A stretch of 64,000 bases of DNA from Fibrobacterales bacterium. GTDB lineage: Bacteria > Fibrobacterota > Fibrobacteria > Fibrobacterales > JAOPTW01. Made by a program: the position numbers. Of this stretch, positions 39,001 to 42,000 are shown piece by piece. The stretch is from contig JAOPTX010000023.1 in the NCBI GenBank assembly GCA_051532055.1, positions 80,450 through 144,449 of the forward strand, written 5' to 3'. Positions within the stretch are counted from its first letter, which is position 1. Every line of letters starts with the position of its first letter.

Positions 39001-42000
39001 ACACAACATCTACATGTTTACTTAACTTTACAAAACAAGATCAGATTCTTTACAAACCTACAATAGCCAGGATACAGATGTCAGACATGAAAGAACAAAA
39101 TCTAAAACCCGTCGTTAATGTTGATGCGATTTCAACAATCGACGAATACCTCGAAAAACTTGACTGGCGCGTACAAGCGAACGCCAACCAAGGATACTCA
39201 CTCGGTGGAATGATCCTAAATATTTCTGGGAAACTCATTGCAAACTACTGGCTCTCAAACGTGTATCGGAAGGAAATTGGGGAAGCGCATCGCAATGCCG
39301 ATATGCATATTCACGATCTTGATATGCTTGCAGGATACTGTGCAGGCTGGTCACTCCGCACCCTCCTAAGAGAAGGTTTCAATGGTGTTCCTGGTAAAAT
39401 CGAGTCAACACCTCCAAAACACCTATCAGCAGCAATTGGCCAGATGGTTAACTTCCTCGGTACGTTACAAAATGAATGGGCCGGTGCGCAAGCATTCTCA
39501 TCATTCGACACCTACCTTGCACCTTTTGTAAAAATTGACAATTTAAGCTATGAAGACGTCAAACAAAACATTCAAGAATTTATCTACAACTTAAATGTCC
39601 CTTCACGCTGGGGTACTCAAACACCATTTACCAATGTAACTCTTGACTGGACCTGCCCTGAAGACCTTAAAGAACAACTCCCAATCATTGGTGGTGAAGA
39701 AGCTGACTTTACCTATGCCGACGTATCCAAAGAGATGGCGATGATTAATCGGGCCTACATGGAAGTAATGATTCAAGGCGATGCTAAAGGAAGAATTTTT
39801 ACATTCCCTATCCCCACTTATAATATTACACCTGATTTTGACTGGGATGGTGAAAACACTGAACTTCTTTTTGAAATGACCGCAAAATACGGTCTTCCTT
39901 ATTTTCAAAACTTCCTCAACTCTGACCTCAATCCTGAAGACGTTCGTTCAATGTGTTGTCGTTTACAGCTCGACCTTAGAGAGCTCCTCAAAAGAGGAAA
40001 CGGACTCTTTGGCTCAGCAGAACAGACCGGCTCAATAGGTGTCGTGACCATAAATTGTGCACGCCTTGGCCACAACTTCAAAGATGACCATGAAGGCCTC
40101 TTAGCTCAACTCGACAGCCTTCTTGAACTCGCCCGAGAAAGTCTTGACAAAAAACGTGAAGTAGTTCAATACTATATAGATAACGGACTATTCCCGTACA
40201 CAAAACGATATCTCGGCACAGTACGCAATCACTTCTCGACCATTGGTGTCAATGGTATTAATGAGTGTGTGAGAAACTTTTTTAATGATAAAGAAGATAT
40301 TGCGTCACCCGCAGGTAAACACTTTGCAGTAAAACTTCTGGATCACATAAGAGAAAAAATGGTTGCCTTTCAAGAAGAGACTGGCAATCTTTACAACCTT
40401 GAAGCAACTCCTGGGGAAGGCACAACCTACCGTTTTGCAAAAGAAGATCAGAAGCGCTACCCTGAAATTCTTCAAGCGGGAACTCAGGATGCACCCTACT
40501 ATACCAACTCATCACAGCTCCCGGTTGGATACACTGATGATCCATTCGAAGCACTCATGCACCAAGAAGAACTTCAAGGTAAATATACTGGTGGTACCGT
40601 CCTCCACCTCTATATGTCAGAACGAATTTCGGGCATTGAGGCATGTAAATCACTCGTCCGCAGAAGCCTCGAACGATTTAAACTACCCTACATAACCATT
40701 TCTCCGACCTTCTCAATCTGCCCGACACATGGTTACCTTACCGGTGAATATGATTATTGTCCAAAATGTGACGAAGCACTGATCGAGAAAAAATTGAAAG
40801 AACAAGGGGTTACAACCTCAGTATAAAACAAACTCCCGCTTTCAGTTATTATCTGAGCGGGAACACACTAAAATAAATTTAGCCAAGAACAACCAAACGA
40901 TAAGGAAACAACAGTAATGATCGAAGAACTCAATATCGATAACGCACAAAGAACAAAATGTGAAATCTGGACCCGCGTAATGGGATACCACCGCCCCGTC
41001 ACAGAATTTAACCTGGGCAAAAAATCTGAATATGCAGAACGCAATACTTTTATTGAATCTAAAGCCATGGCTGCATGTGTAGCTGAGACAGCAGTTGCAT
41101 AATTCTCTATCAATGGTGCCGATTGGGGGAATGACCCCCATGACGACCATCGACTTTCCCGGCAAGCTCTCGGCTGTTCTCTACACCAAAGGGTGCCCGT
41201 GGAAATGTCACTATTGTTACAATACAGAGCTTCTCGACTACAACTCAGACAATACCCTTGATCCTGAAGGACTAGAGAAGTTCTTACTGAAGCGAAAAAA
41301 CCTACTTGATGCCATTGTCATTTGTGGCGGTGAACCAACATCTCATACAAAACTCCCCGAATTTATAGATACTATTCGTTCATACGGGTATCTTATTGGC
41401 CTCCACACCAATGGTGTCTTTCCTAAAGTTCTTTCACAGGTTATTGAAAAATGTGACTGGATTGCAATGGATATTAAAGCACCACTTGACCAATATGACT
41501 CTGTCACTGATGTCCCCAATAGTGCCAAAAATATAGAAGAAAGTATTGATATTATTATTAAAAGTGGTGTTGCCCACGAGTTCCGCACTACGGTCCATAG
41601 TCACTTACTCGATACCAAAGCCTTGCTACACAAAAGTCGGTTCCTTTCTGACAAAGGTGCACAAGTATATGCTCTTCAAAACTTCCAAAACATGCCCGTA
41701 CTTAATCCCGAGCTCAATGAGAAACCTCATCGAACAATATCTCAAACAGTAATTGATGAAATTAGACCGCTTTTCCGTGAATTAATCATCCGTTAACTCC
41801 CAAAAAACTAAAGAAACAGTTTCTAAAAGTGATTGTAATCACAAACCACATAGGAGCACTCATTCAATAAAAGCACTTTACAGGGTTTTTAGGTATATTA
41901 AACCTATGAATATAAATGGTTTGGCATCGGCAATTTCAGGCTTAAAAGCATCATCTACTCGCATGAATGTGAGTGCCCATAATATTGCCAACGTTAATAC

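Follow-up and report, generated by a model that had tools for sequence, protein, structure and literature searches.

A two-chain class III ribonucleotide reductase with four genes for its candidate exchangeable glycyl-radical subunit in a Fibrobacterales bacterium

The window analysed here, a stretch of 64,000 nucleotides from a Fibrobacterales bacterium, carries at positions 39078-41796 the whole of a split operon for the anaerobic ribonucleotide reductase (RNR) NrdD, in which a large catalytic subunit, a small protein with the glycyl-radical motif and the activase NrdG are encoded one after the other. The features of the operon are as follows:

39078..40826, + strand: nrdD-large, 582 aa, catalytic barrel and zinc ribbon (Pfam NRDD, NF006126)
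40827-40916: spacer of 90 nt between nrdD-large and nrdD-small
40834..40862, + strand: hairpin directly 3' of the large-gene stop codon, within the spacer and without a U-tract
40917..41102, + strand: nrdD-small, linked copy, putative 61-aa glycyl-radical subunit (Pfam NRDD, model positions 531-562 of 562)
41095 (TTG) or 41113 (ATG) to 41796, + strand: nrdG, radical SAM activase (TIGR02495, NrdG2)

A preliminary description of this DNA had reported a 582-aa NrdD, a 61-aa gene with the motif RVMGY and nrdG at this place, and the open reading frames and family matches bear it out. The division of the Pfam NRDD model between the two proteins is likewise as described before: in a profile search the large protein matches positions 2-529 of 562 (E 1.7e-175), and the linked small protein matches only the last 32 positions, 531-562 (29.3 bits, cut-off 26.2). 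The model NF006126 is matched by the large protein at 1039 bits (cut-off 548) over positions 97-656 of 684. The coverage of 0.82 given earlier for this model stands, but the missing 0.18 belongs partly to the ATP-cone at the N-terminus, not to the C-terminus only, the cone being judged missing because the match begins at position 97. The large chain is without this cone, which is present in its proteobacterial relatives, and also without a C-terminal glycyl-radical loop. It does carry the finger-loop cysteines C293/C294 (the CC motif), as required of a class III RNR, as well as a zinc-ribbon motif C548-x2-H551 ... C561-x2-C564, which aligns to the T. maritima motif and is assigned from sequence, the chain ending 18 residues later. 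All six residues (C293, C294, C548, H551, C561 and C564) are invariant among 42 split large subunits.

The glycyl-radical loop (RV.GY) is found not on the large chain but on the separate 61-aa protein as RVMGY, where it forms part of the motif CEIWTRVMGYHRPV, which contains TRVMGY, with Gly23 as the presumed radical site; the small protein has 75 relatives of 33-107 aa. The activase scores 192.9 bits with TIGR02495 (cut-off 131), being the only protein of the genome to exceed this cut-off, and with the TTG at 41095 as its start overlaps nrdD-small by 8 nt, the ATG at 41113 being the alternative start. The small ORF shares the reading frame of the large ORF, and in that frame the large gene is followed by three stops (its own TAA, then TGA, then TAA). 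These stops and the hairpin in the spacer (minimum free energy -15.1 kcal/mol, z = -3.4) agree with what had been noted previously, and a hairpin with another stem sequence (-15.8 kcal/mol, z = -1.3) occupies the matching place in the same-genus genome. Judged by its genes, the operon is predicted to encode a two-chain class III ribonucleotide reductase.

Searches of the whole genome with tblastn and the Pfam model find one nrdD-large and exactly four copies of nrdD-small (59-61 aa), and the three unlinked paralogues of the preliminary description are thereby recovered:

C56:3948-4130: unlinked nrdD-small, here called C56a (tblastn and Pfam NRDD)
C56:5596-5775: unlinked nrdD-small, here called C56b (tblastn and Pfam NRDD)
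C94:6445-6624: unlinked nrdD-small, here called C94 (tblastn and Pfam NRDD)

Each of the four small ORFs holds the radical loop and little else. The unlinked copies, each with its own upstream region, lie in unrelated and ordinary chromosomal surroundings, the neighbours being accBC, a FecR-like gene and serine-rich proteins for the two C56 copies and leuCD-like genes, a zinc-ribbon membrane protein and an HDOD response regulator for C94. The genome also encodes one class I/II-type RNR and one complete pyruvate formate-lyase (PFL) with its own radical domain and an activase; this PFL is the only protein of the genome to match Gly_radical PF01228, the small proteins matching NRDD instead. Neither a second PFL-like protein nor GrcA was found in the genome, nor any other enzyme without its radical domain apart from the NrdD large subunit. 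With a single large subunit and no other candidate enzyme, NrdD is the sole plausible partner of all four small proteins.

The split as such is not rare. A pattern scan over one genome per species returned at least 601 stretches, and among the best 80 of these at least 601 loci the zinc ribbon and the radical loop lie in separate ORFs in 71, in all three relative frames, with 3 loci fused and 6 not judgeable. Split carriers among the matches listed are Thiobacillus thioparus, T. denitrificans, Stutzerimonas stutzeri, Achromobacter mucicolens, Castellaniella species and Massilia. In the order of T. thioparus (Burkholderiales-type), where the split is the usual form, 79 of 301 sampled genomes are positive and about 69 of the 79 are split; 72 of 82 matches in this sample lie in frames of 63-355 aa, frame length being an imperfect guide in high-GC genomes, as three loci with long chance frames turned out to be split. 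The small gene also occurs on 161 plasmid records, including Ralstonia (132), Bradyrhizobium (7), Cupriavidus (5) and Paracoccus (4), and one Ralstonia plasmid record has three consecutive coding sequences for a reductase, a 58-aa 'anaerobic ribonucleoside-triphosphate reductase' and an activase. The scan and the plasmid records are in line with the earlier remark that the split is widespread and its small ORF already annotated.

Within Fibrobacterales the counts given before are reproduced. Matches occur in 14 of 157 genomes, with four copies each in this genome (G000) and the same-genus genome; outside this genus, split forms are limited to one further genome, whose small ORF is in a different frame from the large one (offset 1), and the remaining 11 genomes have their match within frames of 285-1110 aa. 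The special feature here is the possession of four conserved copies, the highest number found, rather than the split. The large chain is 73% identical to the split subunit of T. thioparus and 53% identical to a fused NrdD of Fibrobacterales, and the fused NrdD tails form a very long branch in a tree of the small proteins. Together, these identities and the long fused branch make it likely that the split operon of this genus was shared horizontally with Pseudomonadota, in one direction or the other.

All four small genes recur in the same-genus genome (G001), where the C56-type pair is again about 1.6 kb apart. Nei-Gojobori dN/dS ratios between the two genomes are 0.052 for the linked copy, 0.087 for C94, 0.086 for C56a and 0.238 for C56b, values that are rough because each gene has only about 60 codons, and compare with 0.025 for the large subunit and 0.041 for nrdG. 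The dN values underlying the three ratios in the preliminary description are closely matched (0.028, 0.037 and 0.048), but dS is higher than was given there, at 0.43-0.56 for the small-gene pairs. In three of the four small copies dN is as low as that of the large subunit, while C56b, for which the preliminary description had given no ratio, is more relaxed (dN/dS 0.24), chiefly in its tail; the tails beyond the conserved core vary among the paralogues. Fifteen positions that are invariant among 33 stand-alone homologues are kept in all four copies. In a tree inferred by maximum likelihood from 60 small proteins, whose few columns leave the deeper forks open, the eight copies of both genomes form one clade with metagenomic relatives (99/93), three orthologue pairs sit on starred branches and the linked pair has a support of 98/70. 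The orthologue pairs indicate that the duplications are older than the split of the two species. The sequence comparisons thus support the view that the additional copies are functional and that purifying selection acts on them.

Docking of the small chain was modelled with the large chain and C56a, the most divergent of the unlinked copies, from self-made alignments of about 40 relatives per chain. The complex reached an ipSAE of 0.81 (three runs, 0.79-0.83) and the best of three controls 0.00; in the calibration, 116 of 157 solved complexes but only 2 of 215 mismatched pairs attained this ipSAE mark, counts that apply only approximately because the alignments were self-made. At least 85% of contacts recur between runs, with a partner pLDDT of at least 76. 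The contacts of lowest error join residues 15-18 of the small chain to residues 544-548 of the large chain, and the invariant Cys15 of the small chain is modelled beside C548, C561 and C564 of the zinc ribbon. A cysteine stands just before EVWTRVMGY in two of three fused relatives (L055 and L075), matching Cys15, which is thus probably not peculiar to the split form. As structures of one-chain NrdD have been solved, the good result of the model may mirror likeness to them instead of being independent evidence; a sequence search of the PDB with the small protein gave no match at E up to 1. In the model, C56a occupies the site of the radical domain on the single NrdD large subunit of the genome. 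The NRDD match, the selection on the genes, the sole partner and the docking model all agree with the proposal of the preliminary description that the 60-aa proteins are free-standing glycyl-radical subunits of NrdD type. By analogy with known glycyl-radical proteins, it is well supported that they would constitute a separate, exchangeable radical subunit of NrdD, the exchange itself being the part that is carried over from the analogy.

Oxygen destroys glycyl-radical enzymes at the radical glycine, and PFL is the only one of them known to have a radical part that can be replaced. Building on the observed gene anatomy, conservation, copy number and duplication history, the arrangement that we consider rather probable is a two-chain NrdD whose exchangeable small chain is charged by NrdG, whose unlinked paralogues use the same site and whose large chain can be reloaded. 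If one-chain NrdD and the action of PFL-AE on YfiD are a guide, NrdG would use S-adenosylmethionine to generate the radical at Gly23 of the small chain. According to the model, the CE(I/V)W strand of the small chain would pair with large-chain strand 544-548, next to the zinc ribbon, and the docked chain would insert its Gly loop into the barrel. Going by one-chain NrdD and YfiD/PFL-AE, the small chain may then hand the radical to a finger-loop cysteine, with the three unlinked paralogues acting as further functional versions on the same site of the single large subunit. On the same grounds a small chain cleaved by oxygen could be replaced and the large chain reloaded, which would require that both fragments of the cleaved chain depart from the large chain. 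With the labile part on a small chain of its own that is encoded by several genes, cleavage by oxygen would cost only a chain of 60 residues, and the split design makes the oxygen-labile part replaceable in principle. A spare-part function of the small chains under oxygen is plausible by analogy. The broader proposal is advanced tentatively, as a possibility that we would rather not bank on: NrdD would have a detachable subunit in hundreds of species, charged by NrdG off the enzyme and swappable, with the four-gene pool and the prophage copies described below as its supply, and oxygen-cleaved tips would be replaced.

Since the parent NrdD has no radical domain of its own, the small protein is primarily an obligatory subunit and not a case of the GrcA type. 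A live rival, which accounts for the data nearly as well as spare parts do, goes no further than this and takes the three extra genes as differently regulated isoforms or dosage copies of that subunit, with no special part in recovery from oxygen. We regard this account as somewhat unlikely. The unlinked copies have separate upstream regions and ordinary chromosomal settings, the tails after the conserved core vary among the paralogues, and a single small gene suffices for the split enzyme in nearly all genomes searched; however, searches for NrdR boxes, promoters, terminators and a shared 12-mer found no regulatory motif that tells the copies apart. NrdR is encoded in the genome, and a scan with a 16-nt consensus of the NrdR box found a single site with three mismatches at 38969-38984, 94 nt upstream of nrdD, as well as two overlapping sites upstream of C56b, whereas the C94 locus had none. 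The site in the window was equalled in 46 of 100 shuffles, which amounts to no excess. Scans for sigma-70-like promoters and for terminators did not rise above shuffled expectation, and Rfam gave no match at E up to 1 on the four loci. The 12-mer GCATCTTGTATA, present upstream of both C56a and C94, was rejected as the mark of a regulon, occurring 3 times in the genome against 1.1 expected and having its third site apparently outside any upstream region; it is probably a relic of duplication. One metatranscriptome run contained 0.20 of the sampled words of L001:3000-6500, with contigs that span 3055-3655 (the FecR-like gene) and 3733-3907 (upstream of C56a) and not the small ORFs, absence being something that such contigs cannot show. 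An isoform role would be compatible with exchange, because switching between isoforms needs a swap of small chains on one large subunit.

Extra copies of the small gene are uncommon in other genomes. In the order sample, a second copy occurs in 3 of 79 positive genomes, each with two copies; none of 28 positive genomes in a class sample of 400 has one (one further genome was unscored), and none of five hand-picked genomes does. This rarity indicates that the split enzyme needs no spare genes in order to work. Among the 18 genomes of the order and class samples with a long-frame match (at least 596 aa), none has a second copy beside it, so the small protein was not seen alongside one-chain NrdD, unlike GrcA, which occurs alongside PFL. 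In the first of the three two-copy genomes, the additional gene is a prophage orphan between an endolysin (phrog_181) and an Rz-like spanin (phrog_1403), downstream of a holin (phrog_2359). In the second, the orphan adjoins a DUF3363 relaxase-like gene and a UvrD-type helicase, and in the third, the copy belongs to a decayed second operon with a scrap of an ATP-cone and an activase-like ORF that is truncated. For such a radical gene to move on mobile DNA without the large subunit makes sense only if it can be used with the large subunit of the resident genome, as the exchangeable small chain proposed above would be. The small proteins also match the phage family phrog_4132. Phage records searched with the small protein of the window gave no match at E up to 1e-3. 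A search of these with the prophage orphan found three matches, all weak (E 4e-3 to 0.8); two fall under annotated anaerobic RNR genes, the third record being unannotated.

It is improbable that the unlinked copies act outside RNR catalysis altogether, as decoys or regulators of NrdG, as stores of radicals or as sacrificial traps for oxygen. Their separation from nrdD and nrdG would suit such roles, and the case of YfiD demonstrates activation of a free radical domain by itself; nevertheless, the residues that are invariant in the linked small subunits are all present, those of the strand that the model sets against the zinc ribbon among them, and the low dN of three of the four copies argues against a departure from the original function. 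An origin of the split in faulty assembly, a frameshift or gene decay with the small ORFs as remnants, for which the common reading frame of the two ORFs in the window might speak, can be dismissed as practically impossible in view of the three in-frame stops, the spacer of 90 nt and the separate start codon of the small gene, the same layout in 71 of the best 80 of at least 601 loci from different species in three relative frames, its presence in complete plasmid records and the purifying selection on the small genes, and the preliminary description had been right to exclude a sequencing error.

Whether glycyl-radical enzymes other than formate lyases have spare parts is yet to be determined according to a 2026 review, and the 2021 paper on YfiD agrees with it. 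Should the spare-part reading hold for the two-chain NrdD, it would be the first spare-part system of a glycyl-radical enzyme beyond PFL and would answer the question of that review. The claim of being first, made already in the preliminary description, has the review's statement in its favour; its weaker side is that it depends on searches that missed most subscription papers. No description of a two-gene NrdD was found by full-text searches, most subscription journals being outside their reach, and the accessible parts of the RNR literature yielded no split class III RNR beside the described class II split. As far as could be seen, the arrangement is annotated in databases and apparently undiscussed in the literature. 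The nrdDG genes of Alcaligenes eutrophus pHG1 are said to be the subject of a study by Siedow et al. from 1999. The genome paper of Cupriavidus metallidurans, in the section available, gives NrdDG as Rmet_5137 and Rmet_5139 and leaves 5138 unmentioned. An NrdD in two pieces brings the question of spare parts within simple experimental reach, and the split form is found in culturable denitrifiers (Thiobacillus, Stutzerimonas, Castellaniella and Cupriavidus). A role beyond that of a plain subunit is most likely to become visible in the genus with four copies and in the prophage-borne copy, and the split also bears on how RNR genes are counted and annotated.

Known systems resemble the one described here in different respects. 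One-chain NrdD with its NrdG (PDB 4COI/4U3E of T. maritima, 1H78 of phage T4, and 8P23) has the families Pfam NRDD and NF006126 in common with the split form, and both possess the barrel, the CC finger loop, the RV.GY loop and an adjacent activase; T. maritima NrdD also shares the zinc ribbon of the C..H...C..C type. In contrast to one-chain NrdD, the radical loop here is a separate polypeptide with its own start codon and four genes, and there is no ATP-cone. Like nrdD-small, the GrcA/YfiD protein of E. coli and its phage T4 counterpart Y06I are small free-standing proteins that consist of the glycyl-radical domain only, and phage-borne copies are known of both types, that of nrdD-small being in a prophage. 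GrcA/YfiD and Y06I are activated by the activase of the parent enzyme and replace the radical domain of pyruvate formate-lyase, a behaviour whose counterpart in split NrdD would be expected by analogy. The family of nrdD-small, however, is NRDD and not Gly_radical PF01228, and the parent here is without a radical domain, so that the small protein is needed from the start rather than after damage only. The split class II RNR NrdJa/NrdJb of Pseudomonas aeruginosa is similar in that the catalytic chain is divided near the C-terminus with the zinc-finger region involved. It differs in class and cofactor and in having the zinc finger on the small chain, while the zinc ribbon here is on the large one; and its small chain carries no radical, whereas nrdD-small carries the glycyl-radical loop.

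Beside the nrdD operon in the window, which runs on the forward strand and encodes the large NrdD subunit, a separate small glycyl-radical protein and the activase NrdG, lie the following features:

37512-38168, reverse strand, gene for a deoxynucleoside kinase (dNK family in Pfam, E 7e-44)
40834-40862, hairpin directly 3' of the stop codon of the large nrdD gene
41906-42262, forward strand, gene whose 118-aa product carries the two flagellar basal-body rod motifs (Flg_bb_rod, Flg_bbr_C)
42278-43147, reverse strand, DUF4423 protein gene

The kinase gene, on the opposite strand, precedes nrdD by about 900 nt, so that dNTP salvage adjoins de novo synthesis. 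The hairpin, which might allow the large nrdD gene to be expressed independently of the two genes downstream, the small gene and nrdG, is found at the same place in a same-genus genome (L004 1416-1444), there with a different stem sequence. The rod-motif gene follows immediately downstream of nrdG; the Fibrobacterales are not an order known for flagella. The DUF4423 protein has a paralogue encoded near the two small copies on contig C56 (L001 8463-9341), an HTH_3 match also being present in one of the pair. At the remaining unlinked copy, on contig C94, an 84-aa zinc-ribbon protein that appears to end in a C-terminal membrane helix is encoded 160 nt upstream of the small gene (L002 6029-6283), and the same-genus genome retains this zinc-ribbon gene at the same place, upstream of its C94-type copy.

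The window also contains a complete pyruvate formate-lyase, whose 749-aa frame includes a Gly_radical domain of its own, together with a PflA-like activase (4903-7653), and a search of this genome for a GrcA-type protein found none.

Other Fibrobacterales carry fused NrdDs, and those of two genomes (L008 in G029, L009 in G011) have about 130 additional residues C-terminal to the radical loop. Among these residues is a CPNC motif reminiscent of a thioredoxin/NrdH-type fold, which suggests that a reductant may be fused to the reductase.

Small radical genes are also found in other settings. In one genome (G276) from the sample of the order to which Thiobacillus thioparus belongs, a second nrdD operon has decayed (L116, contig C25, 1814-5196). 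Its 61-aa small gene is intact and has as neighbours an ATP-cone scrap of 63 aa, genes for a methyltransferase and a B12-binding radical SAM protein, and a truncated activase-like ORF of 92 aa. In another (G246, contig C31), a 51-aa NrdD-type radical protein is encoded within a prophage lysis cassette, in the following order:

L115 3046-4784, holin (phrog_2359), endolysin (phrog_181), small gene, Rz-like spanin (phrog_1403)

The prophage with its NrdD-type radical gene parallels phage T4, which carries Y06I, a spare part for pyruvate formate-lyase. In PHROGs, furthermore, a family of phage proteins whose function is unknown, phrog_4132, matches the NrdD-type radical loop with positions 117-154 of its 179-position model (E 2.5e-7 and 1.5e-7).
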